Shown: positions 15,527 through 60,800, counted from the stretch's first letter. The stretch: 64,000 bases of DNA from Kordia sp. (GCF_965224175.1 NZ_OZ245041.1:1456249-1520248), one strand, 5' to 3'. The notes: generated by a model from the letters alone, not told the origin. Numbers and translations are program-made.

Positions 15527-15665
15527 TCGGATATTATTTTAACAGAATCAAAACCGTTTGAAGCATTACAAAAAATAGCTTTATTAATGATTCTAGTGGT
15601 TTTTCAATTTTACGCTATGAATATACGTAAAACATCTTATTTTTGTGAGAATTAAAATAACAAAC

Positions 15666-17381: not shown

Positions 17382-17387
17382 GATATC

Positions 17388-17729: not shown

Positions 17730-17744
17730 TAAAAAAAGAAGTGC

Positions 17745-17782
17745 AAAAAAGCCGTTTCAATACGTATTGAAACGGCTTTTTT
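17745..17782 (+). terminator. Intrinsic terminator
   Basis: AAAAAAGCCGTTTCAATA-CG-TATTGAAACGGCTTTTTT. Confidence 0.85.
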
Positions 17783-17883
17783 CTTTTAACAGAACTTTAA
17801 CGACCTTCCGTTAAACCATGCAGTTTCTTTGCAGTCAAACCAACACCAAAAAAAATGCTATTTATAGAAAACCATTCATCCAA

Positions 17884-42477: not shown

Positions 42478-44204
42478 TATTCAGCACATGTTTCGTTAGC
42501 ATTATTTTCAAGCAAGTCATTCAAGACAATTAATATACGATTCTTTTCACTAGTAGGTAATTGTTGAAAAGCAATAATGGTTGGTGTTTGATTTGGGTAA
42601 TTCATTAAACCAAGCCATGCTATATCCTTATAAAGTTGTAGTGGCTCTTCATTTATGGGAACAACAGTACCTGTATCAAATTCTTGCGTAGCTCTAGCAA
42701 ATGTACCTCTGTAATAATCTGCCATGTAATTATGACTCCAATCTTTTGTTGTTCTAAAATATTCATAAATTATATGAAGATCACCATTTTCCAGTGAAGC
42801 AATAGCTTCTTCGGGTGTTACATTGGGTAAATTACCCAAACCAATTTCTTCTAATATCTGCCTTAAAAATTCTGCGTGGATAACTTCATGAATTATTGTA
42901 TTAGCTACGAATAAATTTGGATTGAAATTTACATTTTTAAATGAGTTCGGTTGATTATTATTATTAAGTGTAATAACAATTGTGCCATTATCATCTGGCC
43001 ACTGAGTAATTGCTCTATCTGTAAGTCCTAAATCTCCTAATTTAAATGTTAAATTTGCTTTTGATTTACTGTCAGTGAACCTAGCTAAAGCTTTAGTTAA
43101 TATACTACCGTCTTTCATTTTGTTATAGATGCATTTCGCCTTACCCGTAAAGCTCGAATCTAAAATTATTTTCTCATCAAAATCCACTTCTCCTCCATCA
43201 CGGAGAGCTTCAATAGCCTCATCCAAAAACTTTTTATTTCCTTCACATCCATTCGCTTCAATATATTGCGTAATCGCGATCGCACTTTGTCCGCCAACGA
43301 ATGTTTTGAGCCAATCAATGTCTGAAGACGATAACGGTAGCGGGTTATTTGCGTCCAAAGAACCAATATAACCATTATTCACACAATTAACAACACGTTG
43401 CCAATACGGTATAAAAGGTACAGTTTCTATTGGGTCATCGTCATCTGAGTCATTTCCGCCACCTGTTGTACCACCGCCATTTCCGCTTCCTTGAGTTCCG
43501 CCTCCTGAACATGCCCAACGATCAATAATAATCCATTCGCAAGTTTCAGATGCCGGCATACAATTTACGGTTACCTGACATAAACATCCATCTTGATTCA
43601 TACTGTGCTGTCCGTTACCAGTACAACGATATTGTGTACATTGATATTCTTGTGTTGTTTCTACTAAAACTGGTGTTCCTTCTAAACAAGGTCTAATACC
43701 ACCAGGATATGATTTTTCTAACAATGTGTTTCCTGCAATGCTTTCCATAATTGTATGGTCGCGATCAAGTTCTACACCATTTTCTGTGACAAGCTTGGGA
43801 TATTTTAGTAAGAATTGATATTCTTCACCATCATTGAAATCAAGCAGCATATAATTTATAAGATGTGTTTCTGATTCTGCATGATCAATCACGGAAGTTG
43901 TATATTGTGTATAGGTATTGCGTTCAATGATTTGTATTGTAGAGAGATCGAGAGAAAAATTAGGAGTATCTACCTCATCAGCATTTTTTGAGCTATTTTC
44001 TGCACGAGAAACTGCTGATAGTTTTTTGTAGATCGTGGGATTAATGCTACGTAAATGAGTTCCATTCTCTATTTTAACAACAAAATCTGACTTTTGAGAT
44101 TGTTCGTTTTCAGCGATACGCGTAGCATCATCCTGCTCACAGGAAGTTACACTGAACAACAGTATACATACAATAAAAGATAATCGTTTTAAAAGACGTT
44201 TCAT
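42477..44204 (-). CDS. Large surface lipoprotein with a Cys-rich segment, Gly-rich linker and C-terminal HExxH zinc-metallopeptidase (toxin-like) domain
   Basis: Start moved to MKRLLK (44204). Lipobox VTSC + EQDD; 8-Cys segment; GGGTQGSGNGGGTTGGG; TIIHEVIHAE. Confidence 0.75.
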   Translation of the reverse strand: MKRLLKRLSFIVCILLFSVTSCEQDDATRIAENEQSQKSDFVVKIENGTHLRSINPTIYKKLSAVSRAENSSKNADEVDTPNFSLDLSTIQIIERNTYTQYTTSVIDHAESETHLINYMLLDFNDGEEYQFLLKYPKLVTENGVELDRDHTIMESIAGNTLLEKSYPGGIRPCLEGTPVLVETTQEYQCTQYRCTGNGQHSMNQDGCLCQVTVNCMPASETCEWIIIDRWACSGGGTQGSGNGGGTTGGGNDSDDDDPIETVPFIPYWQRVVNCVNNGYIGSLDANNPLPLSSSDIDWLKTFVGGQSAIAITQYIEANGCEGNKKFLDEAIEALRDGGEVDFDEKIILDSSFTGKAKCIYNKMKDGSILTKALARFTDSKSKANLTFKLGDLGLTDRAITQWPDDNGTIVITLNNNNQPNSFKNVNFNPNLFVANTIIHEVIHAEFLRQILEEIGLGNLPNVTPEEAIASLENGDLHIIYEYFRTTKDWSHNYMADYYRGTFARATQEFDTGTVVPINEEPLQLYKDIAWLGLMNYPNQTPTIIAFQQLPTSEKNRILIVLNDLLENNANETCAE

Positions 44205-44419
44205 TACTAACTTTTTTATTCGAAAAAGCAAAGAAAGTATAGGTTTTTGGGGAAACACAATTGTAACGCTTTTACAAATATACAAATTTTTCTTACATAT
44301 AATTATTTTTTATAAAGTTTTTTCTTACGTTTATTGTTTGTCAGAAATATGTCATAACATAAAAAAGTCTTACTTTTACTTTGTAAGACTTCTTGTTTTC
44401 ATATGTATAATTAAGCTAA

Positions 44420-45823: not shown

Positions 45824-46744
45824 ATGAATTATACATTACATCAATTAAAAGTTTTTGTAGAAATTGTAAAGAAACAAAGTATTACGAAAGCTTCTGAAGC
45901 CTTATTTTTAACACAACCTGCTGTTTCTATTCAACTTAAAAAGTTTCAAGATCAGTTTCCTTTACCGCTTACAGAAGTCGTTGGACGAAAGTTATATGTG
46001 ACTAATTTTGGAAAAGAAATTGCAGTTACTGCACAGAAAATTTTGGATGAAGTATCAACTATTGATCATAAAACAAAAGAATATCAAGGAAAACTCGCCG
46101 GGAAATTAACACTTACATGTGTGTCTACAGGAAAATATGTAATGCCATATTATCTTTCTGGATTTGTGAATCAACATGCAGGAATTGATTTTACAATTGA
46201 TGTAACGAATAAACAAAATGTTGTGAAAGATTTGGAAGAAAACAAAGTTGATTTTGCATTGGTTTCTGTATTGCCAAGTCATTTAAATCTTGAAACGTTA
46301 CCATTGCTTAAAAATAGTTTGTATTTGGTTGGTGGAAAAGAACGTGAAAATAATAGAAAAGGTAAAATTGTCGATATTTTTCAAGAACAACCATTATTGT
46401 ACAGAGAAAAAGGTTCGGCCACTCGAAATGCCATGGAGAATTTTATTGATGGAAAGAATGTTTCTGTTCAAAAGAAAATTGAATTGACTTCGAATGAAGC
46501 TTTGAAACAAGCCGTTATTGCTGGTTTAGGATATTCTATTATGCCATTATTAGGAATTAAAAATGCTGTCGATAAAGGCGATATAAAAGTGATTAAACAC
46601 AAAGGATTGCCTATCCACACACAGTGGAATCTCGTTTGGCTCAAAAATAAATCTTTATCACCTGTAGCAACTGCGTTTATCGAATATTTACAGGCTGAAA
46701 AGCACGTTATTAAACAAAAGTATTTTGATTGGGTTGCAGAATAA
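45824..46744 (+). CDS. LysR family regulator (CbbR/CmpR-like), divergent from sbtA
   Basis: YTLHQLKVF, SITKASE.LFLTQPAVS.Q.K, REKGSATR, SNEA.KQAV.AGLG. Confidence 0.92.
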   Translation: MNYTLHQLKVFVEIVKKQSITKASEALFLTQPAVSIQLKKFQDQFPLPLTEVVGRKLYVTNFGKEIAVTAQKILDEVSTIDHKTKEYQGKLAGKLTLTCVSTGKYVMPYYLSGFVNQHAGIDFTIDVTNKQNVVKDLEENKVDFALVSVLPSHLNLETLPLLKNSLYLVGGKERENNRKGKIVDIFQEQPLLYREKGSATRNAMENFIDGKNVSVQKKIELTSNEALKQAVIAGLGYSIMPLLGIKNAVDKGDIKVIKHKGLPIHTQWNLVWLKNKSLSPVATAFIEYLQAEKHVIKQKYFDWVAE

Positions 46745-46889: not shown

Positions 46890-47783
46890 TCAATGTGTAA
46901 AATTTCCAAAATAGACCATATTGATATCTAGCTCTGTGTTGCCAAGTGTAGAACCATCATGGAAACAATTATCCGTTGGCGCAATGTAGTAATCTCCAGG
47001 TTTTTGTTCCATTCTGATTACTGGATAGTCTGGAAAGTGTTTGAAAAAAGTTTCTGCTACATTGTATACATCTACTTTGCTGATGTCCGTAACTTCTTTG
47101 AGCATGTTATGTACCTGAATCATTGATAAGTTAATGTACAGAAAGTAACGCGTTTGCGCTCCAAGATTGATACAGATTCTATTTCCATGCTTGTATGTTG
47201 TGTGCAAGGTCATGAATTGTGTTCCATCATTGTGCATGCCCATATATTTTTTCTCAGGAATGGTAAAATCTTCTGGTAAGCGTGTAATATCGCAAGCTAC
47301 CATTTCTACGTTAGGCAGATTTGCTGTAATGCAATGCAAATGAAAAGGTTTATTATTTGAGATGGTTTGTAAGAAGTTATTCAACTCAATATTCAAAGCT
47401 AAGGTCAACTCCTTTTCTTCTCCAAAACGTTGCATTACGTGTTCTCTTCCTCTACAAGTACTAAAATTAATTTCTTGTATGAGTTGTTTTGCTCTTTCTG
47501 GCAATGCTCCCAAATAGATATTATTATGATCTTTTAATTCGCCTGCAGCCGTTATAATCCGTTTTTCTGTAGTTTCTAGTGGACGCCAATCGCGTTTAGG
47601 AATGTAAGCTTCATCAATATACAACGGTACAAAAGAAAAGTGTTCAAAATTTACTTGTGAACCTGTATGTTCTGAGTGATGAATAACTCCTGAATTGATT
47701 TGTATAGTGTCATAACCTGTAGGTAATTTACTGTGAATTCCAATTCCTTTTTTTATCGTGGTTTCCGTTGCTATTGCTGTCAT
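46890..47783 (-). CDS. Putative non-heme Fe(II) (2OG-type DSBH) oxygenase, paralogue 4
   Basis: MGMHNDG ... RICINLG ... YIAPTDNCFHDGST (HxD...H triad). Confidence 0.6.
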   Translation of the reverse strand: MTAIATETTIKKGIGIHSKLPTGYDTIQINSGVIHHSEHTGSQVNFEHFSFVPLYIDEAYIPKRDWRPLETTEKRIITAAGELKDHNNIYLGALPERAKQLIQEINFSTCRGREHVMQRFGEEKELTLALNIELNNFLQTISNNKPFHLHCITANLPNVEMVACDITRLPEDFTIPEKKYMGMHNDGTQFMTLHTTYKHGNRICINLGAQTRYFLYINLSMIQVHNMLKEVTDISKVDVYNVAETFFKHFPDYPVIRMEQKPGDYYIAPTDNCFHDGSTLGNTELDINMVYFGNFTH

Positions 47784-47795
47784 AATCTTAATTTT

Positions 47796-48677
47796 TTAAT
47801 GTTGAAAACTGCCAAAATATACAATACATACGTCCAAATGTTTTCCTCCTAAAGTAGAGCCATCATGGAAGTAATTATCGGTAGCAGCGATATAATATTG
47901 ATATGGTTTTTGCGCTACTCGAATGACAGGATACTCCGGAAAATGCTTGAAGAAATACGCTGGAATGTTTGATACATTTATGTTTGCTATTTCTGTTTCA
48001 TCTAATTTTTCTGTTAGCATCGTGTACGCTTCTTTTAAAGACAAATTCACAAAAAGTAGATACCGTGTATCTTTTCCTAAATTAATACTGATTCTATTGC
48101 CAAATTCGTGTGCATTGTGAATCGTCATTGATTGTGTAGCGTCATTGTGAATTCCCATAAACTTTTTTTCTGCTTGTTTGAAACCTCTTGGTAACTTCGT
48201 AGTATTAGAAGCCACCAATTCTACATTGGGATAGTTGACACCAATACAATGAAACTTAAATTCTTTATTATTTGCCATTGGCATCAAAAAGTCGTTGAGT
48301 AGCTTTGTAGCTTCTAGAGTAAGTGCTGGATTGGCTTCGAAACGTTCAAAAACCTCATCTCTATCTATACTATGTTCTAATCCAATTTTTTGAAAACATT
48401 CTTTTAACGCAGTCGGAATTTCTCCTAAATACAAAGTATTGTGATCGTTACATGATTCATCTGGAGATAAACAAGTAATTTCTTCTTGAGTTAAGGGTCG
48501 CCAATCGCGTTTATTTACATATGCATAATTCACATATTCTGGAATGAATTCTTCATCTAAATAGCTTACTAAAGCTGCTTTGTGATGCGAATGATGAACT
48601 GTTCCTGAATTAATCATTAGTGCATCTACTCCATCAGGAAGCAGATTTTGAACCATTATATTTCTTTTTATTTTCAT
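47796..48677 (-). CDS. Putative non-heme Fe(II) oxygenase, paralogue 3
   Basis: MGIHNDA ... RISINLG ... YIAATDNYFHDGST. Confidence 0.6.
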   Translation of the reverse strand: MKIKRNIMVQNLLPDGVDALMINSGTVHHSHHKAALVSYLDEEFIPEYVNYAYVNKRDWRPLTQEEITCLSPDESCNDHNTLYLGEIPTALKECFQKIGLEHSIDRDEVFERFEANPALTLEATKLLNDFLMPMANNKEFKFHCIGVNYPNVELVASNTTKLPRGFKQAEKKFMGIHNDATQSMTIHNAHEFGNRISINLGKDTRYLLFVNLSLKEAYTMLTEKLDETEIANINVSNIPAYFFKHFPEYPVIRVAQKPYQYYIAATDNYFHDGSTLGGKHLDVCIVYFGSFQH

Positions 48678-48701
48678 TACAATCGCTATTTAGTTATGAT
48701 A

Positions 48702-49583
48702 TTATTCTTGAAATTTCCCAAAATAGATCATCAATACGTCCAATGCCGTCATTCCTTCTGTAGAACCATCATGAAAACAATGATCTGTTGGTGCAATGTA
48801 GTATTGATAAGGTTTTTGTGGAATTTTAATCACTGGATACTCTGGAAAATGTCTAAAAAACAGTTTCGATATGTTATATAAATCTACATGTAAAACTGAA
48901 ATCCCGATTTTCTTTTTTAACATGTTAAATGCTTGCGTTAAGGAAAGATTTGCATATAGAAAATAACGTGTTTCCTTGCCTAAATTTATAGTAAAACGAT
49001 TTCCCGATTTGTACGTTGCATGTATTGTTGTAGGTTCAGCACCGTCGTTATGAATTCCCATACATTTTTTGTCTTCTTCTCCATAACCTTCAGGAAGCAC
49101 ATTTGTATCTGCTGCTACCATGTCTATATTGGGCAAATTGGCTCCTATATAGTGAAAATGAAATGGTTTTTCGTTTGCAAAACCGTTCAGATATTTTTGC
49201 ATTGTATTACTCAATTTTAGCGTCATATCATGATCGCGTTTCATACATTCGCGCACATCATCTGGTCGTAAGCATTCCTTAAATTTTAAGGCGTCGAAAA
49301 TAGTTTTTAATTCATCTGGAATGTCTCCAACATAGATGGTATTGTAATAATTACGTTGCTCATTCGCGGTTAACGCTTTTATTTCATTTTGAGATAATTT
49401 TCGCCAATCGCGACGTACCATGTATGCATCATCTTCGTATTGTGGTACAAAAGACCAATCGAGATAATTTACTTTACTTTTTTCTTGTTTTGTATGATGA
49501 ATGGTTCCTGAATTTATGAAAACTTCATCAAAAAAATTATCGAGTGTACTGTGTAATCGTATGCCATTTTGTATAATTTCCAT
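48702..49583 (-). CDS. Putative non-heme Fe(II) oxygenase, paralogue 2
   Basis: MGIHNDG ... RFTINLG ... YIAPTDHCFHDGST. Confidence 0.6.
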   Translation of the reverse strand: MEIIQNGIRLHSTLDNFFDEVFINSGTIHHTKQEKSKVNYLDWSFVPQYEDDAYMVRRDWRKLSQNEIKALTANEQRNYYNTIYVGDIPDELKTIFDALKFKECLRPDDVRECMKRDHDMTLKLSNTMQKYLNGFANEKPFHFHYIGANLPNIDMVAADTNVLPEGYGEEDKKCMGIHNDGAEPTTIHATYKSGNRFTINLGKETRYFLYANLSLTQAFNMLKKKIGISVLHVDLYNISKLFFRHFPEYPVIKIPQKPYQYYIAPTDHCFHDGSTEGMTALDVLMIYFGKFQE

Positions 49584-49594
49584 AGCGCTAAGTA

Positions 49595-50431
49595 TTAAGG
49601 AAGTTGATCAAATATACCTGTGTATACCATTGTGATATCTATTTGTTTTGTACCTGCTGTAGAACCGTCATGAAAAAAATTATCTGTTGGTGCTACATAG
49701 AATTGATAAGGCTTTACCGCAATTTTAGTGACTGGATATGTTGGGTAATATGTATAAAAATGCTGTGCGATATTGTCTGGATTTAAAGGTGTTTTTGTAA
49801 GATCCATTTTCATTTTCAACATATTATATACTTGAATCATCGTAAGATTTGTATACACTAAAGTTCTGATTTCATTACTTAGATTGATAGAGATTCTATT
49901 GCCTGATTTGTGTGCCGTATGAATGGAAAAATGCCTGCTTTGATCAATGTGTAAGCCTAAGTATAAAAATGCGCCTTCTACATAAAAACTAGTCATTGTT
50001 TCTCTGTTAGGAATTGCATATGTGATTTTGTGAAATTTGAAATTGCCTGTAGAAGAGAGTTTGTTTAGAAAAACATGTAATTCTTTGTTTATTTTTTCAA
50101 CATGAGTTTCATTGGCTTGAAATCTTGGTATTACATCGTATGCATCCGTAATGTCTTTGAGCGTTAATAATTGAAAAGCTTCTTTTAGTTTTTTTGGAAT
50201 ATCGTCTACGTACAAACTCCTGCGATAGTCAAAATTTGTAGTTTTCGTACCTACCAAGGTATTCAATTGTTCTTGTGTAGGTATTTGCCAAGTTTGTAAC
50301 GGAATATAGGAGTCTTCAAAATAAGTAGCTCCATTGTATTCTTTTACATGTTGTGCTCCAGTATTTACCAATAGCTGATCAGACACATTTTTTATGCCTG
50401 TAAAAAGCTGTATTCCTTTGCGTAGTTTCAT
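49595..50431 (-). CDS. Putative non-heme Fe(II) oxygenase, paralogue 1 (most diverged)
   Basis: LGLHIDQ ... RISINLS ... YVAPTDNFFHDGST. Confidence 0.6.
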   Translation of the reverse strand: MKLRKGIQLFTGIKNVSDQLLVNTGAQHVKEYNGATYFEDSYIPLQTWQIPTQEQLNTLVGTKTTNFDYRRSLYVDDIPKKLKEAFQLLTLKDITDAYDVIPRFQANETHVEKINKELHVFLNKLSSTGNFKFHKITYAIPNRETMTSFYVEGAFLYLGLHIDQSRHFSIHTAHKSGNRISINLSNEIRTLVYTNLTMIQVYNMLKMKMDLTKTPLNPDNIAQHFYTYYPTYPVTKIAVKPYQFYVAPTDNFFHDGSTAGTKQIDITMVYTGIFDQLP

Positions 50432-50496
50432 CTATGGTTATTCGTTAATTTTATGATACATACTTTAATCACAAAAAATTAATTGTGATCACTATT

Positions 50497-51759
50497 TTAC
50501 ACTTGTAATTCCTTTTTAAACGATCTTAGTTTTTCTTGAATAAGTGGATCAATTTTTATTTCACTTTCCTCTTCAAAACTATTGATGATTTCCTCATACA
50601 CCAATGGTTCAACTCCAAGTTCTTCAACAGATGTTGCTGGCAATGAGTTTAAAATATCGTTCTGTATAAAGCTTATCAAACGAACCATATCTTTGCAGTA
50701 CATTGTAGGATTGTCAAAGCCATTTGCTTCCGAGTATCGATGTCCTAAAAATCCACCTCCACAAATATCAAAAACCGGACAGTTTAAACATTGTTCAGTC
50801 ACTTCATCATGTGCTCGGTAATACAATTGAAACGTATCGTCTTCAAATAAATCTTCAAGATTGTTGTTGTGTACATTGATGTCATTTCGAGTAATTCCTT
50901 CAAAACATGCTCTTAACGAATCTACTACTTCCACACTTCCATCAGATTCTACGACAGCAACTCCATTGGTACGTCTTCCCATGAGTTGATTACCAATACC
51001 TTCTTGTCCCATGATCATTTTAACCAGCGTTTCAAAAAAGTAAATACTAGGACGGTTATTTCTATCTTCTTTCCATAATTTGTACAAACCAATAAACCAA
51101 TCAGCATATGGCGTATAATTTTTATCGTGTAATTTACTGACATCCAAACCTAAAGGTGCTTGATCATAATGTCCATCTGGTAAGAGTATGTTTAAACTGC
51201 TTACGGCTAATTTTTTCATTTCTGCATACAATTCTTCAATAGGAATGTTAATATTAACAACTAGCAGTAATCCTCTTAAATTGTATTTTTTTCCTAATTC
51301 AATAGCTTTGGCAACCTGCGTATATGAACCTTTTCCATTGTGAAAAACCCTGTATTCATCATGATACTTTTCTGGACCATCAATACTAATTCCAACAGCA
51401 ATATTTAATTTTTGAAGCAATGTATACCACTTCTCATCAAGAGTTACTCCATTTGTTTGCATTGTAAACACATAGGCTAGTGTTGGCGCTGTATTTTTAA
51501 AAATGGCAATACATTTTTCAAAATATTCAGGTTTTGCTAATAATGGTTCTCCTCCATGAAATACGATTTGTACATGCGTGATTTCTGCATTTTCACAATA
51601 GCTCTTTAATCTATCAGCAAAATTTTGCACCGTTTCTAGTGACATAAATTTTGGCTGTTTTAAATAGGTTTGATCGCCCATGTTGTACATATAGCAATAT
51701 GAACAGTTGAGATTACACCTACTGGCAGTTTTCAATACAAAAGAAGTGACTCTATACAT
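50497..51759 (-). CDS. Radical SAM/SPASM peptide maturase, FxsB / cyclophane-forming (triceptide) type
   Basis: VLKTASRCNLNCSYCYMYN (CxxxCxxC), FHGGEPLL, MQTNG, ISIDG; SPASM CLNCPVFDICGGG..HRY....GFDNP..YC.D. Confidence 0.8.
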   Translation of the reverse strand: MYRVTSFVLKTASRCNLNCSYCYMYNMGDQTYLKQPKFMSLETVQNFADRLKSYCENAEITHVQIVFHGGEPLLAKPEYFEKCIAIFKNTAPTLAYVFTMQTNGVTLDEKWYTLLQKLNIAVGISIDGPEKYHDEYRVFHNGKGSYTQVAKAIELGKKYNLRGLLLVVNINIPIEELYAEMKKLAVSSLNILLPDGHYDQAPLGLDVSKLHDKNYTPYADWFIGLYKLWKEDRNNRPSIYFFETLVKMIMGQEGIGNQLMGRRTNGVAVVESDGSVEVVDSLRACFEGITRNDINVHNNNLEDLFEDDTFQLYYRAHDEVTEQCLNCPVFDICGGGFLGHRYSEANGFDNPTMYCKDMVRLISFIQNDILNSLPATSVEELGVEPLVYEEIINSFEEESEIKIDPLIQEKLRSFKKELQV

Positions 51760-51786
51760 AACTATTTTTTTTCTAATTCATAAAAA

Positions 51787-51820
51787 ACTAGATAATCTCT
51801 AGTTGTAGAGATTATCTAGT
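51787..51820 (-). terminator. Perfect 15-bp hairpin with U-tract between the precursor and rSAM genes
   Basis: ACTAGATAATCTCTA-GTTG-TAGAGATTATCTAGT, followed on the minus strand by TTTTTA. Confidence 0.88.
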
Positions 51821-51827
51821 CAACTTT

Positions 51828-52091
51828 CTATCCAGCAGGTGAATCTGATATTGGTCCTACAGGATCTCTAGGATCAGCTGGCGCCATCTGTAAGAAAGTA
51901 TCAATTTTGTCATACGCAGAAGCTCTAGATGCTTTAGAACTAACAGCTACTACAGGACAATTTGCACTTGCTCGACCTCCAAAGATTGCTTTGTAAAGGT
52001 CTAATTGGTCTTCATTTGAGTTGCTTAACGCTTTGTTTACAACTTCTTTTGATTTTAAGTTTGAAGTGATTTTTGAATTTTTCTTCATCAT
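51828..52091 (-). CDS. Putative RiPP precursor peptide (87 aa)
   Basis: MMKKNSKITSNLKSKEVVNKALSNSNEDQLDLYKAIFGG|RASANCPVVAVSSKASRASAYDKIDTFLQMAPADPRDPVGPISDSPAG; sits between the TonB barrel and the rSAM. Start moved from 52151 to the MM at 52091. Confidence 0.75.
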   Translation of the reverse strand: MMKKNSKITSNLKSKEVVNKALSNSNEDQLDLYKAIFGGRASANCPVVAVSSKASRASAYDKIDTFLQMAPADPRDPVGPISDSPAG

Positions 52092-52183
52092 TAAAAAATT
52101 TAAATGGTTAATAAAACTGTCATTAGTATGGACATGACAATCGCCCTTCACTTTATGAGTAAAATGAAAAAACTATTCGTTGC

Positions 52184-54598
52184 TTAGAGACGTCTTTGAA
52201 TATCACTATTACCTGTATCTCTACTACGTTGGTTTTTTACTGTTGATTTACCAAAAGCGTAGCGTACTGCAAAAGCTATGCTTCTGGTGTCGTGATAATT
52301 GGTATCATTGATACGTATATCACCAACTTGAATGTTATATCGGTCTTTGTTGCTTCTAAGTAAATCTCTTCCAGATAAGGAGAGACTAAATCTTCCGATA
52401 TTTTTTCGTAGTGCAATTTCAGTTTCTAGCCTGTTACCGATTTCGGTGTTGACTAATGTAAAGGGGAAAGTGTTTTTAGCGAATACTGTTAAGGAGATTC
52501 CTTTTACTTTTGATATCGTAAAAGTCTGATTCGCTACTATACTAAATACTAACGAATTACTGTCGATAGTTATTGTGTCATCGGCATAACTTCCTGTGGT
52601 TTGTACATGACCAAAAAGAGAAGTTGCATTGAATCGCCACCAAGGTTGAATTTTTGTTGCCATGGTAACACTACCTGAATAGGAATATTTGTTTCCGTAA
52701 TTCGTTTTTCTGTTAATAATGATTCCTTCGTCAGAATTGAAAGGAAGCGCGTAAAACTCATCTAATAGTTGACTCGCAGCTATTTGTGCAACAATACGAA
52801 CTTTACCTGCTACTTTTGTGTAATTTAATTCTTGACGATAGTAACGGGAAGGGTTTAAAAAAGGGTTTCCTTCAAAAAAGGCTCTATCTGTTGTATATTC
52901 TCGAAAAGGGTTTACATCCCAAAAACTAGGACGTGTTATTCTACTCGATACTGAAAATACAAAACTATGTGCATTGTTCGGTTTGTATCGCAGAAAAGCT
53001 GTTGGAAAAAAGTTTGTATAATTTCTATCTACAACTTTGGTTCCTTCTAGTTTTCCTTTAGCGATTGTATTTTCTATACGCGCTCCAAATTGATACGACC
53101 AAGTATCACTTAAAGTATGATTTATGACTGCGTATAATGCGTTTATATTTTCATCATATTCAAAGAAATTACTTCGTGTAGGATCATCAATCCAAATCAT
53201 TTCTACGATAGCTCTGTTGTCAAAATTTAGGTCATTATCTACTTTAGATAGTGAAAATTTCACACCAGTTTCAACAGCTATATTTTCGCTTAGTGGAAAT
53301 TCTAGATCAAGCTTAAAAGAAGTACTTTTTATATCTTGAATTGTTGCATTACGAAACCAATCGCGAATGTATAAGACATCGTTGTTTTCAAGTGTGACAA
53401 CATCCGTTTTACTGATTCCAGTATTATCTGAGGAAAATTCTAAAAAATCAATATCAGCTGTAAGTAACGTACCTTTACCGTCTAATTTTCCTTGATAATT
53501 AAGGTTTAACGAATAGGTTCGATTGACAGCTTCATCTCTATTTTTTGTGAATGTCAGTGAGTCATTTAACGTGTAGGCATCAAAGCTAATTGCATCTCTA
53601 TTTTGATTTTCATCCGCACCTGAAAATTCAAATAACATTCCGACAATATGTTTGTCATTGATTTCATAGTCTACTCCAAAGTTTGCTCCAGAGAAGAATG
53701 TTTTCATAGTATTTTCGCGATCTATGAAGCGTGTTTCGATATCAGTTGGTTCTGAAATTGGATAGAAAATATCTTTTTCATAATTGGTACGTCGTTCTCT
53801 GTTGCTCAGATATGCTGTTGAGAATAGATTCCATTTAGATTTTCTGTAGTTTAGGTAGATACTTCCTGCTTCTGAGAACAATCGTGTTTGACGGGCGCTT
53901 AAACTTGCGGTTCCTTCTAAACCTTCTTCTTTGTTTTTTTTAGTGACAATATTTATGATTCCTGCTCCGCCTTCAGCTTCAAATCGACTCGAAGGTGTTG
54001 TGATGACTTCTACAGCTTCTAGATTATCAGCTGGTAGGCTTTTTAGATAATTCATTAATACTTCACCAGAAAGTCGTTTTTTTCTACCATTTATGTAAAC
54101 TATCACGCCTTGCGTTCCGGCTATTTCAATCGTTCCGTTTTCGTTTGTAGACACGAAAGGCGTTTTGTTTAAGGTTTCCCAGACACTACTTCCTAGTATC
54201 AAGTCGGAATTAGCTACATTGAAACGCAAGCGATCCGTTTTTCGTTCAATGATATTTTTCTCTGCAGTAATGACTACTTTAGAGAGTTCTTTATTTTCTT
54301 TGAAACGAAAGTTAAGTCTTGTATTTTTTGTGATATTAGAAACTATAATAGAATCTGCATATCCTATATGACTAAAATTAAGCGTATAATTTCCTGATTT
54401 TAAGTTTTTTACTTTATAATAACCAAGACTATCTGTAATTAAATTTTTAACGAGTATATTATCTTTTACAACACTGATAAAGACATCGGGAAGTGGCATC
54501 GCATTAGTATCAGTTACGACACCATCAATTGTATATTGACAATGCGCAAGCTTAATGCTAATGATGATAAACATCAATGCTATTTGTACTTTTTTCAT
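52184..54598 (-). CDS. TonB-dependent outer-membrane beta-barrel protein heading the RiPP operon
   Basis: Signal peptide; carboxypeptidase-regulatory-like domain; plug L.KTPFV....G.I.I.G..GV.VYING; SSRFEAEG..GIINI; GNPFL.P; C-terminal RY.FG. Same family as 17884..20322. Confidence 0.85.
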   Translation of the reverse strand: MKKVQIALMFIIISIKLAHCQYTIDGVVTDTNAMPLPDVFISVVKDNILVKNLITDSLGYYKVKNLKSGNYTLNFSHIGYADSIIVSNITKNTRLNFRFKENKELSKVVITAEKNIIERKTDRLRFNVANSDLILGSSVWETLNKTPFVSTNENGTIEIAGTQGVIVYINGRKKRLSGEVLMNYLKSLPADNLEAVEVITTPSSRFEAEGGAGIINIVTKKNKEEGLEGTASLSARQTRLFSEAGSIYLNYRKSKWNLFSTAYLSNRERRTNYEKDIFYPISEPTDIETRFIDRENTMKTFFSGANFGVDYEINDKHIVGMLFEFSGADENQNRDAISFDAYTLNDSLTFTKNRDEAVNRTYSLNLNYQGKLDGKGTLLTADIDFLEFSSDNTGISKTDVVTLENNDVLYIRDWFRNATIQDIKSTSFKLDLEFPLSENIAVETGVKFSLSKVDNDLNFDNRAIVEMIWIDDPTRSNFFEYDENINALYAVINHTLSDTWSYQFGARIENTIAKGKLEGTKVVDRNYTNFFPTAFLRYKPNNAHSFVFSVSSRITRPSFWDVNPFREYTTDRAFFEGNPFLNPSRYYRQELNYTKVAGKVRIVAQIAASQLLDEFYALPFNSDEGIIINRKTNYGNKYSYSGSVTMATKIQPWWRFNATSLFGHVQTTGSYADDTITIDSNSLVFSIVANQTFTISKVKGISLTVFAKNTFPFTLVNTEIGNRLETEIALRKNIGRFSLSLSGRDLLRSNKDRYNIQVGDIRINDTNYHDTRSIAFAVRYAFGKSTVKNQRSRDTGNSDIQRRL

Positions 54599-55080
54599 GT
54601 AATTCCCCCGAATTAATACAAAACAATTCTGTTGTAAAACGTTCCATGCGGTTTACATAGAAAGTGAATTTTTACAAAAAAAATAGAATTATTCAGTTTT
54701 TATTACCCTTACTAACTTACAATAAAAATATTATTTTACGATCAGCTTTTTCCATAATTAACGAATAATTAATTTTTTATTTTCATAATATTTTTATTGT
54801 ATATAGAGTGTTTTAGGTAGATTTTCAAAGTACTTAATAGTTAAAAATTAGAAAAATAAAGCGTTGAAAACTCAAAAAATCTTTGAGTGTCCAATATTCA
54901 ATCTTGAGTGTATTATTTTTTAGTATGAATGATAAAAAAATCACATATAAAAGTGATTAAAAAACTTACATTTTCACTCGTAAACTTATTATTTTTCAGT
55001 ATCTTATATCCATCTTTATTTGATGACTAAACATCAGATATTTTTTAACTAACACTAACCATATCCCATATTTAAAAAAC

Positions 55081-56754
55081 ATGAAAAATTTTATTTTTAT
55101 GATCATTTTTGGCACCTTATTTTCCTTAAATGCTCAACAGAAAGATTCTCCCAAATTAGTCGTCGGAATTGTCGTAGATCAAATGAGTTATGAATACTTG
55201 TATCGCTTTTATGATAAATTCGGCGAAGAAGGTTTTAAGTTACTAATGAATCAAGGAACCAATTGTCGTAATATGCATTATAATTACGTTCCTACATTTA
55301 CAGGTCCTGGTCATGCTTCCATTTATACAGGTACCACACCAAGCAATCACGGAATTGTTGCTAACGATTGGTATCGTAGAAGTACTGGAAAAATTGAAAA
55401 TTGTGTTGCCGATTCTACAGTGCATACTATAGGTTCTAATACTGACCGTGGTGTTTTTTCTCCATTTAATCTAAAAGCAAATACTATTACAGATCAGTTG
55501 AAATTAACCTATGCAGATTCAAAAGTAATTTCAGTTTCTATTAAGGAACGAGGTTCTATTTTGCCAGGCGGTCATTTGAGCGATGGTTCGTATTGGTTTG
55601 ATTATGAAACAGGCAATTTTATTACGAGTTCTTTTTTTAAAGAAAAACTTCCAGATTGGATTGTAGATTTTAACGCAAAACGATATCCAGACGAAAGTCT
55701 TAAGAAAATATGGAATACCTATTATCCCATTGAACAATATACAGCAAGTGGTCCAGATGATTCTCCGTATGAATATCCTATAGGAAACACCACAAAACCT
55801 GTATTTCCATACGATTTAACAAAAATTATTATTGATAGAGATCAATTTAAAACCGAAGCCGAATATTTATATAATAAGTATTTAATTTTTACTACTTCTC
55901 CTTTTGCAAATACACATTTAACAAACTTGGCAATGACAGCTATTGAAGGAGAAGATTTAGGAAAAGACAATCAGACGGATATGCTTACGATTAGTTTTTC
56001 TTCTACAGATATTGTTGGACATTATTTTGGACCTTATGCAGTTGAATTGCAAGATATGTACATTAGACTTGATATGGAGATTGCACGACTTATTAAGTAT
56101 TTGAATAAAACAGTAGGTGAAAATGAATTCACAATTTTTCTGACTGCCGATCATGGTATTGTTCCTGTTCCACAGTTTATGTTAGATCATAATCTTCCAG
56201 GAGGTTATCTTTTTACCGATGGACCAGAAGCTGAATTACGCAAATCTGTAGCGAATAAATTCGGAACCGATGTGATTAGTGAACTTAATAATAATAATAT
56301 TTATTTGAATAGACCTGAAATTGCTAGACTTGGTTTGAATTTGAGTGAAGTTGCCGATTTTGTTTCTGATGAAGTAAGACAATGGGATCATATGAAACGT
56401 GTGTATACTGAGGATGAATTGTATATTGCTGCTAGTGATGACGAATGGATGGACATGGTAAGAAGAGGACACTTCAATGTAGAAAGCGGAGATTTAATTT
56501 TTATACTGCAACCTGGATATTTGCCAAAATCAAAAGATATAAAAGAAGCTAGGATGGGAACAACACACGGATCTCAATTTAATTATGACACGCAAGTTCC
56601 GTTGTTGTGGTATGGAAAAAATATTCCAGCTCAAGAAATACATCGTCATTTGAATATTACAGATATTTCAGCAACACTGACACAGATATTATATCTACAG
56701 AGTCCGAATGCATTGACAGGAAAACCGATACTTGAAATTTTAGATAAGAAGTAA
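55081..56754 (+). CDS. pafA: PafA-type alkaline phosphatase (nucleotide pyrophosphatase/phosphodiesterase superfamily)
   Basis: VVGIVVDQM, PTFTGPGHASIYTG (Thr nucleophile), SSTDIVGH.FGP, TADHG, GTTHGS. Confidence 0.9.
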   Translation: MKNFIFMIIFGTLFSLNAQQKDSPKLVVGIVVDQMSYEYLYRFYDKFGEEGFKLLMNQGTNCRNMHYNYVPTFTGPGHASIYTGTTPSNHGIVANDWYRRSTGKIENCVADSTVHTIGSNTDRGVFSPFNLKANTITDQLKLTYADSKVISVSIKERGSILPGGHLSDGSYWFDYETGNFITSSFFKEKLPDWIVDFNAKRYPDESLKKIWNTYYPIEQYTASGPDDSPYEYPIGNTTKPVFPYDLTKIIIDRDQFKTEAEYLYNKYLIFTTSPFANTHLTNLAMTAIEGEDLGKDNQTDMLTISFSSTDIVGHYFGPYAVELQDMYIRLDMEIARLIKYLNKTVGENEFTIFLTADHGIVPVPQFMLDHNLPGGYLFTDGPEAELRKSVANKFGTDVISELNNNNIYLNRPEIARLGLNLSEVADFVSDEVRQWDHMKRVYTEDELYIAASDDEWMDMVRRGHFNVESGDLIFILQPGYLPKSKDIKEARMGTTHGSQFNYDTQVPLLWYGKNIPAQEIHRHLNITDISATLTQILYLQSPNALTGKPILEILDKK

Positions 56755-56848: not shown

Positions 56849-57856
56849 TCAGTCTAACACTTTATACATTTCTATCCACTTTTTTACAAAAGTGATGGCT
56901 TCATCAAAGTATTGATCGTGTATCCATGATTTTCCCCAAGCTGAAATTCCATCAACATGCACACCTAAAAGCCAAATATGTCTTATAACAACAAAGACAT
57001 TGGCTGCTTTTATTTCATCTTCACTGAGTGATTTTACACTGGAATAACCTTCTAAAAATGCTTTCCAAAGAAGCAATCTCTTGTCTAAATGTTCTTGTTC
57101 CCAATTGTTGTTGGGCACACAACTCCAAAGAAAAACAGAAATATCATACGCGCGCCATCCATAGCCAAAGCAATCAAAGTCAAAAACAGAAATTTTACCA
57201 TGTTCATCTGAAAAAATATTCCCATAATGAAAATCACCATGACAAATACCATAATCTAATGCTGATTGAGATTGTATGTCAGAGATTTTAGCACGTAATG
57301 CAGTTGCCGTCGCTTTTAAATAATTGAAATCAGCTTCTCGGTGTTTTAAAAATGGTTGTACTTGTTCTAGCGGAATATCTAGTAAATGTTCCATATTGAG
57401 TTCAAACCGTTCTAGTTTTTTCATTTTATCGGAAGTCTTGTGTATAGACGCCACTACTCTTCCGTAATTTCTGCTTGTAGAAACATCTAATTCTTTGATG
57501 CTTTTTCCTTTTGCTGATTCAAACAAAACAACATAGCGAATTCCTTCTGGAGCATTAATTTCTAGGATATACTCATCTTGCTTATTTCGAATAGGAATCG
57601 CAACTTCAATATTGTTTTTATGAAGATAATTGATGAGTTCTAACTCTGAAGTAATATCATTTTTTGTTCTCCATTGATTCGTATATATACGCAAATAGTA
57701 TGTGTTTCCTTCGTCTAAAACTTCATACGTATCATTCAGTCCTGGTTTGAAAAGCATGCATTCGCAAGCAGGATTTAAGTTGAACTGCGACAGAATGTGT
57801 TTTTTTATACCTTCGTTTGTAAAGGTTGATTTATAGGTAGGAAATATTTCTTTCAT
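56849..57856 (-). CDS. APH / homoserine kinase type II-like phosphotransferase
   Basis: G.NDTY, YYLRIY, CHGDFHYGN (Brenner motif), FDFD. Start moved to MKEIFP (57856), 13 nt after the NRPS stop. Confidence 0.85.
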   Translation of the reverse strand: MKEIFPTYKSTFTNEGIKKHILSQFNLNPACECMLFKPGLNDTYEVLDEGNTYYLRIYTNQWRTKNDITSELELINYLHKNNIEVAIPIRNKQDEYILEINAPEGIRYVVLFESAKGKSIKELDVSTSRNYGRVVASIHKTSDKMKKLERFELNMEHLLDIPLEQVQPFLKHREADFNYLKATATALRAKISDIQSQSALDYGICHGDFHYGNIFSDEHGKISVFDFDCFGYGWRAYDISVFLWSCVPNNNWEQEHLDKRLLLWKAFLEGYSSVKSLSEDEIKAANVFVVIRHIWLLGVHVDGISAWGKSWIHDQYFDEAITFVKKWIEMYKVLD

Positions 57857-57869
57857 AGTTTGGTTTTCA

Positions 57870-60800
57870 TTAGAAGCGTACACTGCTGACAATATTTGTT
57901 TCTAAACTTAGTTTTTGTTGCTTATGTATAAGTTGATTTGAGTATTCGTCATTTTCAAAGACATGCGTAATGATGTTTCCATGATGACAATCTACATTAA
58001 TGACTTCTAAATTTTCAACGAATTGTTTTACATTATTATCTGCTAAGGTTTGAATATACGCCTGAATTTCATCACTGCCTTCAAAATCAATTCGTGTATC
58101 GTGTTGCAATGCTTTGAATAGAACTACGCGACTTCTTGTCAATATTCCAGAAATCGGTTGTTTGCTAATTTTATGTTCAGCTGCAGCTGCTCTCATTACA
58201 TTGGCTACATAAGTTTCGTCATAACCATCGGCAATCATTTGTGCAGTAGCTATTTTAGTATTTTCAATTTCGTCATACCTATCTAACAATGCTAACAAAT
58301 GTGCATCTCTGATCAATGTATCTAGTAAATACACATTTATATTTCTACATCCTTTTTGTTCTAGAATGTAAGCCATTTCCAGTGCAATTTGTCCTCCTAA
58401 CGACCAAGCACATAGATTGATAGTTTCTGTTAGATTTTTTGTAAGCAACTCATTTACATACTTTTCTGCTAGTAAATTTAGGTTTGAAATAGAATCTTCA
58501 TTCACAATATTATAATTGTCAATTCCGTACGAGTTCATATTGTTTCGGAGCTTATTCGCTAACTCTGTATACACTTCACAACCGCTTTTAGCTGGATGCA
58601 CAAATAAAAGATTTTTTTCGTTAGCTAAATCGACATTCATCTTTTTGATAAGTGTATTTGATGATCGCTTTTTAGGTACATTTAAAAGTAAATTCTCAAT
58701 ACTTTTATGTTTAAACAAATCCGCAATACTCAACTCTTCTCCTTCGGTAGAAAAAGCTTTATTCATTTTAACAATTAGCTTTATGGCTAAAATAGAGTTT
58801 CCTCCTATCTGAAAGAAATCATCTGTAATTCCAACTTTTTCTATGCTTAAAACTTCTTGCCATATAGAACAGAGATTAATTTCTACATCAGTACTTGGAG
58901 CTTTGTACAATTCTTCATTCACAAATTCTGCATCAGGCAATGCTTTACGATCTAACTTACCATTAACTGTCAACGAAAAATGATCTAGTGCAACCAAAAT
59001 ACTAGGAATCATATAATCAGGAAGTTGATCTGACAAATGTGCTTGTATTTTTTCTTTATCAACTTTTCCATCGGAAACATAATAACCCACTAAATATGTA
59101 TGATCATTTTTTTGTTTTGCCAATACACAAGCCTGCTTAACACCTTCTACTGCTCTTAGCGTATTTTCTATTTCGCCTAATTCTATTCGATAACCTCTTA
59201 TTTTTATTTGGAAATCATTTCTACCAATGTATTCTATATTTCCATTAGCTAGCCATCTTACTAAATCGCCTGTTTTGTAGAGTTTTATATAACCATTTGT
59301 TTGATCTTTTTCCGTTGCAAATGGGTTTTCAATAAACCTTTCCGCACTGAGTTCTGGTCGATGTAAATAACCACGAGTTAAATCTACACCACTAATAAAC
59401 AATTCACCTTGAACGCCTACAGGGACTGGTTGATAGTTATCATCTAGAACATAAAATTTAATATTCTGAATTGGTTTTCCGATGTGAACTAAATCAATAT
59501 CTGCTTGAATGTCATCGTAAGCGCTTACATCAATTGCTACTTCTGTAGGACCATAAAGATTGTTTAGTTTTATTGTAGGAAATAGATTTTTAAAATCATT
59601 CACCAATTGCAATGGAAGTGCTTCTCCACTACAAAAAACTTGCTGTACAGCATGTAGCGATTGTGATGATTTACTTTCTAAATGAGCCACAAAACCATGC
59701 AACATACTTGGTACAAAATGTAACTTTGTAACTGATTGATCGTTTAGTACATGATGCAAATACTCAGGATCTTTGTGTCCGTTTACTTTCGCAAAAATCA
59801 ACTTACTTCCAGAGATAAGAGGCAATAATAATTCCCATACAGAAACATCAAAAACATATGGCGTTTTCTGTAGTATTGTATCAGATTCATTAAAGTTATA
59901 TGCTTCTTTTTGCCATAACAATCTATTCACTAAAAGTTGATGTGTCACCATCGCGCCTTTTGGTTTCCCTGTAGTTCCAGAAGTATAGATTACATAGGCT
60001 ACATCTGTAGCTATGTGCTGATTCGTAACATTTGTTGTTGTGTTGTGTTGGTAACAATTTGAATCTAAAGTTATCAAACGAACTGCGTTGATTTGCTGTA
60101 AATTTTCCGCCAAATGAGATTGCGTCAATACAACTTCTGTTTTGGTATCTTCAATGATATAATTGATTCTTTCCGCAGGATATTCAGGATCTATCGGAAC
60201 ATACGCAGCTCCAGATTTCATGATTCCTAATATGCCAATGATCATTTCCAAGCTTCTATCTAAACATAAAGCGACCAAAGTATCTGATGTAATGGTTATT
60301 TCTGATTGTAGATATCTTGCCAATTGATTTGCTTTCGCATTTAATTCAGCATATGTCAGCGTTTCGCCTTCAAATGAAACTGCAATAGCATTTGGTGTTT
60401 GTAAAACCTGCTTTTCAAACAATTCATAAATCGTTTTGTCTTCTGGATATGGTGTTTCTGTCTGGTTCCAATCTACAACGATCTGTTGGTATTCTGCTTC
60501 GGTAATCGTTGACAGCTCTGTGTGTTTTTCATCTAAATTTGAAGGTAACTGATTTAGTAATAATTCAATCTTGCTCAAATTGAAAGTAGCTTGTTTTCGG
60601 TCTAAAATACTTTGATCTGATTTTAAGTTGATCACTAACTTTTCTCCTTGTTCGTATGCTGTAATTCCTATTGGATAATCTAATTTTTCTACGCCATAAC
60701 GAAATTCAGGATGTAGCTTATCGTCACCTTCTTGTTTTGCATCAGACATCGGATAGTTTTCAAATACTAGCAAACTATGAAACAATCGTTTTCCTTCTTT

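Follow-up and report, generated by a model that had tools for sequence, protein, structure and literature searches.

The closest described relative of the system reported here is the mic cluster of Mucilaginibacter inviolabilis, the product of which is minviopeptin (Guo et al., PNAS 2026, PMC12912966). In that cluster, the radical S-adenosylmethionine (rSAM) enzyme MicB makes three cyclophanes in the core of the precursor MicA (YSKIHASGGFTKDL), at YSK, HAS and FTK, and MicD ADP-ribosylates a His residue (PMC12912966). MicC, earlier annotated as hypothetical, hydroxylates the Cα of Gly8 and splits the N–Cα bond, leaving a C-terminal amide; its essential residues are H160, D162, H253, R188 and K266 (PMC12912966; structure PDB 9VKM). 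Clusters with one or several MicC homologues beside rSAM enzymes have already been noted in print, and those with multiple copies were flagged by the MicC authors as likely sources of other chemistry (PMC12912966). Here we describe a seven-gene operon (positions 46890-54598) in a 64,000-nucleotide stretch of the Kordia sp. genome (NZ_OZ245041.1:1456249-1520248; this whole stretch is referred to as the window), which encodes a TonB-dependent transporter-like outer-membrane protein, a precursor peptide, an rSAM enzyme and four paralogous oxygenases, OxA through OxD. Judged by its genes and their homologues, it is probably a triceptide (three-residue cyclophane)-type operon for a peptide made on ribosomes and modified after translation (RiPP) and a relative of the minviopeptin system.

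The comparison with mic was made using a mic-like locus (L047) that encodes a 46% identical MicC homologue, as a 97% identical MicC copy sits on a 1.5-kb contig. The L047 precursor reads ...IVGG followed by SSAPGYSKVHVSGGFEKSIGVIEA, and the locus continues with an rSAM gene, the MicC homologue, a 192-aa gene and a C39-peptidase ATP-binding cassette (ABC) transporter. Both the mic cluster and the Kordia operon come from Bacteroidota and run from a precursor to an FxsB/YhhB-like rSAM enzyme and a MicC-family Fe(II)/2-oxoglutarate (2OG) enzyme (followed in mic by the C39 ABC transporter MicT). They also share a leader ending in GG, a core with Y-x-K ... F-x-x motifs, and the catalytic triad, 2OG-binding Arg and fold of the oxygenase; an OMP_b-brl_3 TonB-dependent-type gene likewise lies near the L047 locus. 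The Kordia operon differs in carrying four oxygenases (two to four across the family) where mic has one, each 24–29% identical to MicC (OxA, 24%) and without its Lys266. Only the four oxygenases lie between the rSAM gene and the end of the operon, such that neither the ADP-ribosyltransferase MicD nor the 192-aa gene of L047 has a counterpart. The Gly-Gly cleavage site is not found in the Kordia core, the leader and core families are unlike, the core here contains an invariant Cys, and a transporter gene heads the operon in a cluster that lacks an exporter in the present genome.

The architecture and Cys pattern of the rSAM enzyme are also those of ChlB, FxsB and YhhB, with the ChlB rSAM domain aligning over 370 residues. 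The ChlB (ChlH domain) and YhhC systems similarly pair a cyclophane synthase with a 2OG-dependent oxidase on one peptide, sometimes as a fusion, and YhhC makes erythro-β-hydroxy-Asp in YhhA (PMC12186529). The oxidative partners in the ChlB/FxsB/YhhB systems are HExxH proteins, whereas those of the Kordia operon are of a double-stranded β-helix (DSBH), KdoO-like type; the phylum and the precursor family differ as well, and the rSAM enzyme here scores below the family cutoffs. The DSBH fold and HxD...H triad are shared with KdoO, KanJ, JmjC and clavaminate synthase, but the likeness to KdoO-type dioxygenases is remote (template-modelling [TM] score about 0.35, 10–12% identity), the proteins here match no Pfam model, and the substrates are sugars or small molecules there and presumably a peptide here. 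Export systems based on peptidase-containing ABC transporters have in common with this family the double-glycine leader and the C39-peptidase ABC transporter seen in 17 related loci; they differ in that no such transporter lies in the window and that Chryseobacterium and Aquimarina carry a retropepsin-like lipoprotein instead.

An earlier reading of this DNA, made from the sequence alone (hereafter the sequence-only reading), had proposed a new RiPP class. This is too strong, because neither enzyme family is new, the general logic is known and multi-MicC clusters are in print, and the operon is better described as a new branch of triceptide/mic-like systems. The same reading was aware of no described cluster of such composition: no description of the gene set was found in the literature searched, with supplementary Figures S52 and S53 of PMC12912966 (multi-MicC clusters) lying outside that search, although clusters with several MicC copies had already been pointed out (PMC12912966).

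A conserved operon in Bacteroidota

The seven genes are all transcribed in one direction from the minus strand, and the open reading frames (ORFs) were verified at the coordinates in Table 1. ORF calling reproduced the sequence-only reading of seven co-oriented genes with gaps of 11, 24 and 12 nt between the paralogues; the barrel and peptide genes are separated by 92 nt, the peptide and rSAM genes by 68 nt, and the rSAM and OxA genes by 65 nt. The proposed single precursor also stands, since the window contains one precursor-like ORF only. The G+C content is ∼33% across the whole window, and the cluster proteins are 76–87% identical to proteins of Kordia species. The 65-nt spacer between the rSAM and OxA genes (50432-50496, minus strand) contains a small inverted repeat, ATCACAA...TTGTGAT; most related loci have a 4-nt overlap of this gene pair in place of the spacer of the present strain.

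An equivalent cluster occurs at about 45 Bacteroidota loci across Flavobacteriia, Sphingobacteriia and Chitinophagia, and its gene order recurs in Kordia, Aquimarina, Tenacibaculum, Flavobacterium, Chryseobacterium, Pedobacter, Mucilaginibacter, Chitinophaga, Niastella and other genera. Scanning one genome per species yielded 43 loci, to which additional look-ups added more, and architectures were compared by ORF calling and BLAST on the loci found. The recurring arrangement is far beyond chance. Public annotation of the cluster proteins is limited to ‘hypothetical protein’, ‘radical SAM protein’ and ‘outer membrane beta-barrel family protein’. In Kordia, Tenacibaculum and Aquimarina the order is barrel, peptide, rSAM and four paralogues, with the Aquimarina barrel reduced to a 95-aa remnant. 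Chitinophaga has the Kordia-type order followed by a C39-peptidase ABC transporter, and Pedobacter, Niastella, Flavobacterium and others have three paralogues and the C39 ABC transporter; in Pedobacter cryoconitis, the full order is LytTR regulator, barrel, peptide, rSAM, three oxygenases and C39 ABC. The Chryseobacterium cluster consists of peptide, rSAM, two paralogues and a retropepsin-like lipoprotein, inserted in a starch-utilisation locus.

In 17 of the related loci, the gene immediately downstream of the final oxygenase encodes a C39-peptidase ABC transporter. The sequence-only reading had remarked that the cluster lacks a protease and an exporter, which is true of the window and yet is not a property of the system, because the precursor has a double-glycine leader and these 17 homologous loci encode the matching transporter. 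The missing exporter is specific to the present lineage.

The mechanical ORF of the precursor begins at an upstream GTG and comprises 107 aa; homologues begin at MKK, hence the count of 87 aa from the ATG. When 21 precursors from about 10 genera are aligned, leader residues D31, L32 and F37 are invariant and Y33, K34, A35, G38 and G39 are at least 90% conserved (...NEQLDLYKAIFGG). The leader ends in a classical double-glycine site, ...LDLYKAIFGG, in keeping with the C39 transporter of the 17 loci. The invariant residues of the core are C45, Y60, F66 and L67, with conservation of at least 90% at A59 and D64. This protein-level conservation across three classes identifies the small ORF as a real gene.

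The aromatic-X-X core motifs required of triceptide precursors are present (Y60-D-K and F66-L-Q), and on this basis Y60-D61-K62 and F66-L67-Q68 are the proposed cyclophane motifs. In Kordia and Chitinophaga the end of the core is a run of consecutive triplets, Y-D-K, (H/I)-D-T and F-L-Q, which in Chryseobacterium become Y-D/N-R/K, x-D-x and F-L-R; the middle triplet is H-D-T in many species. A Pro-rich tail after FLQ(A/M), forming a follower of 15–20 residues, is confined to the Kordia loci. Conserved glycines occur only as the GG of the leader.

A strong hairpin between the peptide and rSAM genes, one of the features picked out by the sequence-only reading, is located directly 3′ of the precursor stop codon and has a folding energy of −20.7 kcal/mol (z = −5.9; 0 of 200 shuffles fold as well). 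Essentially all of the 32 related loci examined have a stem of 12–17 bp at the same position. The stem sequences vary between genera while the position is kept, which argues for a conserved attenuator or stabiliser function, and we read the hairpin as an intrinsic terminator/attenuator or an mRNA-stabilising stem-loop. The intergenic region before the transporter gene measures 482 nt; six aligned Kordia upstream regions retain an invariant TTTTTATTGTAAGTTAG..GGTAAT followed by TTTGTAA and AACC blocks, the surroundings having diverged. The strict Bacteroidota −33/−7 promoter pattern (TTG...TAnnTTTG) is absent from the sequences upstream of the genes for the transporter, the precursor and the rSAM enzyme, and a sigma-70 promoter scan returned background level only. 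In loci of Pedobacter and Mucilaginibacter, as in the mic-like locus, the cluster has LytTR-type response regulators immediately upstream (Table 1), which suggests peptide-pheromone-style regulation there; the window contains no regulator of this type.

The modifying enzymes and the transporter

Both rSAM motifs quoted in the sequence-only reading, FVLKTASRCNLNCSYCYMY and ICGGGFLGHRYSEANGFDNPTMYC, are present in the enzyme, the latter with T where S had been written. The CX3CX2C motif (C15, C19 and C22) and residues C324, C327 and C333 are found in 45/45 homologues, C355 in 44/45 and C285 in 42/45. A profile check against TIGR04269, TIGR04261 and TIGR04496, set in advance, placed the enzyme nearest to the FxsB/YhhB group and not with the sulfatase maturases (339 and 314 bits vs 177 bits), and the FxsB-model scores of its homologues in other genera span 291–333 bits. 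The best match in the Protein Data Bank (PDB; phmmer) is the rSAM domain of ChlB, a multiple cyclophane synthase (E 3e-56, residues 3-373), with the anaerobic sulfatase maturase anSME at 5e-33. The enzyme is 38% identical to the rSAM enzyme of the mic-like locus L047 and shares its NCBIfam score profile; on these grounds, it belongs in the same broad group as that enzyme, a close relative of which makes Tyr-Lys, His-Ser and Phe-Lys cyclophanes. Homology of this kind makes it a probable three-residue cyclophane-forming enzyme.

OxA through OxD are 33–48% identical to one another, share an invariant H..D...H pattern and match no Pfam or NCBIfam model. About 100 database relatives of OxC, the third paralogue, are all annotated as hypothetical and devoid of a Pfam domain, and their named sources are all Bacteroidota. 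The AlphaFold2 model of OxC (pLDDT confidence 95.8) adopts a DSBH fold, and the top 50 Foldseek matches are all Fe(II)/2OG oxygenases, the best being KdoO (E 4e-4, TM about 0.35). MicC (9VKM) was not among the Foldseek returns for this model and was found instead by a sequence-profile search, in which the profile of the paralogue family matched it over its full length (positions 3-290, E 2.4e-48); the phmmer comparison of OxC with MicC gave an E value of 6e-18. Equivalents of MicC residues H160, D162, H253, R188 and Y244 are present in all four paralogues and in 122/122 cluster oxygenases. By these sequence criteria, OxA–D are MicC homologues and HxD...H oxygenases of the Fe(II)/2OG type. The sequence-only reading was right that the four are not αKG-HExxH proteins and wrong to call the family uncharacterised, given the profile match to MicC, which was characterised in 2026. 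The steps of +16 Da that it anticipated are one expectation but not the sole one, as MicC, the single characterised member, cleaves the backbone oxidatively.

The paralogues were sorted into clades with a neighbour-joining tree of 122 oxygenases, computed without support values. Clade A is represented in every locus, next to the rSAM gene, and its start codon overlaps the rSAM stop codon in most loci. The second lineage, represented once in Chryseobacterium, is divided elsewhere into clades B, C and D. Kordia shares clade B with Chitinophaga, Pedobacter, Niastella and Flavobacterium, and all four clades with Chitinophaga, indicating that the copies are old and separately maintained and not recent duplicates.

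One of these clades may be tied to a particular site in the core. An Arg at −4/−5 from the invariant Tyr (Arg56 here) occurs in 15/15 precursors accompanied by a clade D enzyme vs 2/28 without one, counts that are not phylogenetically independent and may represent 3–4 independent lineages; one of the two exceptions is on a truncated contig. Precursor features that track clades B or C were also sought, and none was clean, only the pairing of clade D with Arg holding. We regard this covariation as a lead rather than proof.

In a profile search of 1.8 billion representatives, the wider family amounts to 1,331 clusters when E ≤ 1e-3 is required and to 367 when the limit is E ≤ 1e-30. It includes natural fusions of an rSAM enzyme with one or more MicC-like domains, namely P0236 (670 aa), P0242 (633 aa) and P0130 (994 aa), the last with three MicC-profile matches in one polypeptide. 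The rSAM portions of P0130 and P0242 score above the GrrM/OscB cutoff and that of P0236 just below it. These fusions imply that MicC-type oxygenases are generally coupled to cyclophane synthases, and they parallel the known rSAM-HExxH fusions.

The transporter is composed of a signal peptide, a CarboxypepD_reg-like domain (residues ∼22-100), a plug (∼115-220) and a β-barrel (∼226-782), and it matches the Pfam models OMP_b-brl_3 (9e-79), CarbopepD_reg_2 (3.7e-12) and TonB_dep_Rec_b-barrel (8e-12); the Plug model scores 19.2 bits, under its cutoff of 23.9. A sequence search against the PDB was uninformative. The top 50 PDB matches of its AlphaFold2 model (pLDDT 82, with low confidence at residues 105-112) by Foldseek are all TonB-dependent transporters (E about 1e-21 over ∼780 columns) and include PhuR, PirA, PqqU, PfeA, FhuE, Cir and OprC. 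The predicted structure is hence in accord with the dedicated TonB barrel of the sequence-only reading, as a true TonB-dependent transporter fold with plug and barrel. Orthologues of at least 45% identity are confined to cluster-bearing taxa, the next identity being at most 34%, and the transporter is the first cluster gene in 25 loci. Look-ups seeded with barrel homologues bear out this link: one barrel, 32% identical, stands at the head of a more distant cluster that has another peptide, an rSAM enzyme, a single MicC-like gene and a C39 ABC transporter.

In Mucilaginibacter gracilis (L050, 8001-10412), an orphan orthologue of the transporter is followed by integrase, transposase and defence-like genes, and the cluster has apparently been lost or displaced. 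Within the window, a second OMP_b-brl_3-type barrel (17818-20322, plus strand) is 26% identical to the cluster transporter and has no peptide or rSAM neighbours.

Proposed pathway and alternative readings

The RiPP operon reading is supported, and from the genes, their conservation, the family assignments, the catalytic residues and the folds we infer a pathway in which the kinds of bond, the sequence of steps, the reactions of the oxygenases and both the direction and the purpose of transport are proposals. Transcription would begin upstream of the transporter gene, and the hairpin would terminate or stabilise most transcripts, such that precursor mRNA would exceed enzyme mRNA. The 87-aa precursor carries a 39-residue leader that ends, by sequence and conservation, in a double glycine. 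The rSAM enzyme would recognise this leader and join the rings of Tyr60 and Phe66 to the β-carbons of Lys62 and Gln68, with a change of −2 Da per ring, and a third ring would form in species with His in the middle triplet; this step is proposed because of the homology to ChlB/MicB-like enzymes and the invariant Tyr and Phe. Each of OxA–D would oxidise a different site of the core, which would probably have been cyclised beforehand, as each has a complete iron triad, the 2OG-binding Arg and its own old orthologous clade.

Candidate oxidations include β-hydroxylation of the X2 residues Asp61, Asp64 and Leu67 and an oxidation by OxD at or near Arg56. By the parallel with YhhC and YhhA, Asp61 and Asp64 are plausible hydroxylation targets. 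Alternatively, MicC-like Cα hydroxylation with backbone cleavage could trim the Kordia-specific tail. A C39-peptidase ABC transporter encoded elsewhere in the genome would then cleave the leader behind GG and export the peptide. In the least certain step, the TonB-dependent transporter might re-import the mature peptide, or a metal complex of it, across the outer membrane; a co-evolving importer would favour a metallophore or a peptide signal over a simple antibiotic.

Several observations weigh against this reading. The cluster family is described here from sequence and predicted structures. The rSAM enzyme misses every curated NCBIfam cutoff, scoring 339.1 bits against 445 for NF041707 (YhhB equivalog), 313.8 against 370 for TIGR04269 (FxsB), 180.1 against 450 for TIGR04496 (XyeB), 176.7 against 349 for TIGR03942 (anSME) and 117 against 310 for TIGR04261 (GrrM/OscB); the sequence-only assignment to the FxsB/XyeB/GrrM group therefore holds as nearest neighbourhood but not by any curated cutoff. 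The Lys266 that is essential in MicC is replaced by T, L, C and N in OxA–D, and the core has no conserved Gly, the residue at which MicC cleaves. Cys45, though invariant, has no role in a pure cyclophane model. The clade assignments come from a tree without support values, and the linkage of OxD to Arg56 rests on lineages that are few. By tblastn, neither a C39/ABC exporter nor a cluster-type aspartyl protease (a leader peptidase candidate) is encoded anywhere in the 64-kb window. Transcript data were not found, the public runs that contain the locus being flat-depth DNA assemblies. The direction of transport is inferred and cannot be read from sequence, and biosynthesis can dispense with the barrel, which is entirely missing from the Chryseobacterium loci.

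As to the function of the product, the possibility that has to be taken most seriously, even if we think it the less probable outcome, is a secreted bacteriocin-like antibacterial, for which the barrel would serve as an immunity or decoy component or as a secretion aid and not as an importer. A double-glycine leader with a C39 ABC transporter is the classical bacteriocin export route, the LytTR regulators that flank the Pedobacter and Mucilaginibacter clusters are typical of peptide-pheromone and bacteriocin loci, and darobactin and dynobactin, which are related rSAM cyclophane or ether peptides, are antibiotics. Set against this, the barrel has the full plug-plus-barrel fold of an importer and leads the operon in 25 loci, and an organism that makes a toxin would not ordinarily also encode a route for taking it up; minviopeptin, moreover, showed no inhibitory activity in the panel tested (PMC12912966).

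We entertain only tentatively, as rather unlikely in its full form, the idea that the multiply oxidised cyclophane peptide is re-imported as a ribosomal metallophore (for Fe, Cu or Zn) or as an imported signal, with OxA–D catalysing distinct, site-specific and possibly new reactions and OxD acting on Arg56. The metal ligands might include β-hydroxy-Asp, Cys, His and Tyr, and β-hydroxy-Asp together with an importer would fit a metallophore. Methanobactin is a RiPP metallophore with a dedicated TonB-dependent transporter (MbnA/MbnT), and the Kordia RiPP operon likewise encodes its own TonB-dependent transporter. The core here offers potential ligands in its Cys, two Asp, Tyr and, in many species, His, and the oxygenases could make β-hydroxy-Asp. 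The parallel is one of analogy only, as the modifying enzymes are non-homologous and a metal-responsive regulator is not part of the present system.

A further reading concerns the oxygenases, one or more of which may trim the peptide as MicC does, through Cα hydroxylation and splitting of the N–Cα bond, thereby removing the Pro-rich tail (with an amide left behind), the leader at GG, or both. MicC, the only characterised family member, acts in this manner (PMC12912966). The 15–20-residue follower is found only in Kordia, no protease is encoded within the 64 kb of the window, and the leader GG provides the only conserved glycines. The Chitinophaga loci have the same four clades together with a C39 transporter and no tail, so that neither the tail nor the missing protease tracks any of the paralogues. 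MicC also needs Gly at the scissile position, which the FLQ(A/M)AP junction does not supply, and Lys266 is not conserved; we therefore consider trimming by these enzymes doubtful.

Thioether chemistry would account for the residue that the cyclophane model leaves unexplained, the Cys45 that is invariant in all precursors. The rSAM enzyme might cross-link it as in sacti- or ranthipeptides, or form C–O or C–N links, in place of or besides cyclophanes, and the oxygenases would then act on that product. Neighbouring SPASM families do form thioethers (PapB, at 116 bits, and SCIFF-type models were also matched), and the enzyme lies under the trusted cutoffs of all cyclophane families. Cyclophane models nonetheless score two to three times higher (339 and 314 vs 116 bits), the closest solved or characterised relatives, ChlB and the MicB-like enzyme, are cyclophane synthases, and the invariant Tyr and Phe occupy position 1 of three-residue motifs, as in MicA, all of which makes this reading quite improbable.

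A role as a sulfatase-type maturase for a neighbour such as the phosphodiesterase at 55081-56754, with the small ORF being spurious, draws on a 177-bit anSME match and on Phosphodiest-family genes that adjoin both this cluster and (at 38% identity) the MicC homologue of locus L048, but is effectively refuted by model scores (half the anSME cutoff and half the cyclophane-family scores), by conservation of the small ORF as protein across three classes and by synteny, the phosphodiesterase accompanying the cluster in no other Kordia locus; in addition, the Cys context CPVVAV does not match the sulfatase motif C-x-P/A-x-R.

On the triceptide-type reading, the operon bears on an enzyme type known only since 2026, when a single member was found to catalyse an unusual reaction resembling that of a protease. 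The cluster family constitutes a natural test set in which two, three or four orthologous copies are matched to one short conserved core, the covariation of OxD with Arg56 gives a directly testable site assignment, and the fusions to cyclophane synthases confirm the functional coupling. A TonB-dependent transporter at the head of the operon is unusual for a triceptide cluster. Should it import the product, this would point to marine and soil Bacteroidota having a ribosomal metallophore or an imported signal, functions about which little is known in these bacteria; even if all of those readings prove wrong, the family would still be one more triceptide branch with new tailoring steps.

Variant loci and neighbouring genes

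Table 1. Features of the Kordia operon and coordinates of LytTR-type regulators in related loci.
Feature	Coordinates	Strand	Size or remarks
TonB-dependent transporter-like outer-membrane protein	52184-54598	-	804 aa
Precursor peptide gene	51828-52091	-	87 aa counted from ATG
Precursor leader, residues 1-39	51975-52091	-	double-glycine motif at end, ...NEDQLDLYKAIFGG
Precursor core, residues 40-87 and stop codon	51828-51974	-	RASANCPVVAVSSKASRASAYDKIDTFLQMAPADPRDPVGPISDSPAG
Hairpin and T run	51780-51821 (stem-loop 51821-51786)	-	16-bp stem, 4-nt loop
Radical SAM/SPASM-type peptide maturase (rSAM)	50497-51759	-	420 aa
OxA, MicC-family Fe(II)/2-oxoglutarate oxygenase, clade A	49595-50431	-	278 aa
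OxB, MicC-family oxygenase, clade B	48702-49583	-	293 aa
OxC, MicC-family oxygenase, clade C	47796-48677	-	293 aa
OxD, MicC-family oxygenase, clade D	46890-47783	-	297 aa
Conserved upstream block, likely promoter/operator region (function inferred only)	54650-54740	-	alignment of six Kordia upstream regions
LytTR-type regulators in related loci	L049 7090-7836; L015 2155-2895; L021 1541-3392; L047 5247-5999		

The Chryseobacterium clusters (L026-L038 and L041, ∼9870-11040) end in a retropepsin-like aspartyl protease lipoprotein with a weak match to PF13650, and a homologue of it lies beside the cluster in Aquimarina (L011, 3770-4702, minus strand); it is a candidate alternative leader peptidase. 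More distant variants of the cluster were also seen. One, in Chitinophaga sp. 30R24 (L045, 2069-9726), has two tandem rSAM genes and two MicC-like genes with a barrel between; in another (L051, 8001-15089), the barrel is followed by a 78-aa peptide in which YRA/YAD/YVK motifs occur, then by an rSAM enzyme, a single MicC-like gene and a C39 ABC transporter. In a third, locus L021, a second barrel/rSAM/C39 cluster (13594-18873) immediately follows the first. The only match outside Bacteroidota is a 3.7-kb contig of a metagenome-assembled genome labelled Aggregatilineales (L042), which carries a Mucilaginibacter-like precursor, a barrel fragment and an rSAM gene and is probably a mis-binned Bacteroidota contig.

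The LysR gene at 45824-46744 and the phosphodiesterase gene at 55081-56754 were each considered as cluster members and rejected, as neither is syntenic with the cluster outside the closest relative. The latter (plus strand) encodes a secreted type I phosphodiesterase/nucleotide pyrophosphatase of the alkaline-phosphatase superfamily and is divergent from the transporter gene. Its 38% identical homologue in Pseudarcicella (L048, 6358-7959) is directly upstream of a MicC homologue, an adjacency that may be coincidence and is curious in view of the use of ADP-ribose in the mic system. The region just upstream of the cluster contains a large non-ribosomal peptide synthetase ORF (57870-63893, minus strand; 2007 aa) with condensation, adenylation, peptidyl carrier protein and thioesterase domains, the frame of which may extend upstream of the listed GTG start. 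Its end is overlapped by the gene for a 347-aa APH/choline-kinase-like phosphotransferase (56849-57892, minus strand), and the two look like a separate secondary-metabolite locus adjoining the RiPP operon. On the other side, a 602-aa secreted protein (42477-44285, minus strand) that matches no Pfam model has a Cys/Gly-rich middle and an HEVIH (HExxH) motif, and may be a metalloprotease or toxin-like.

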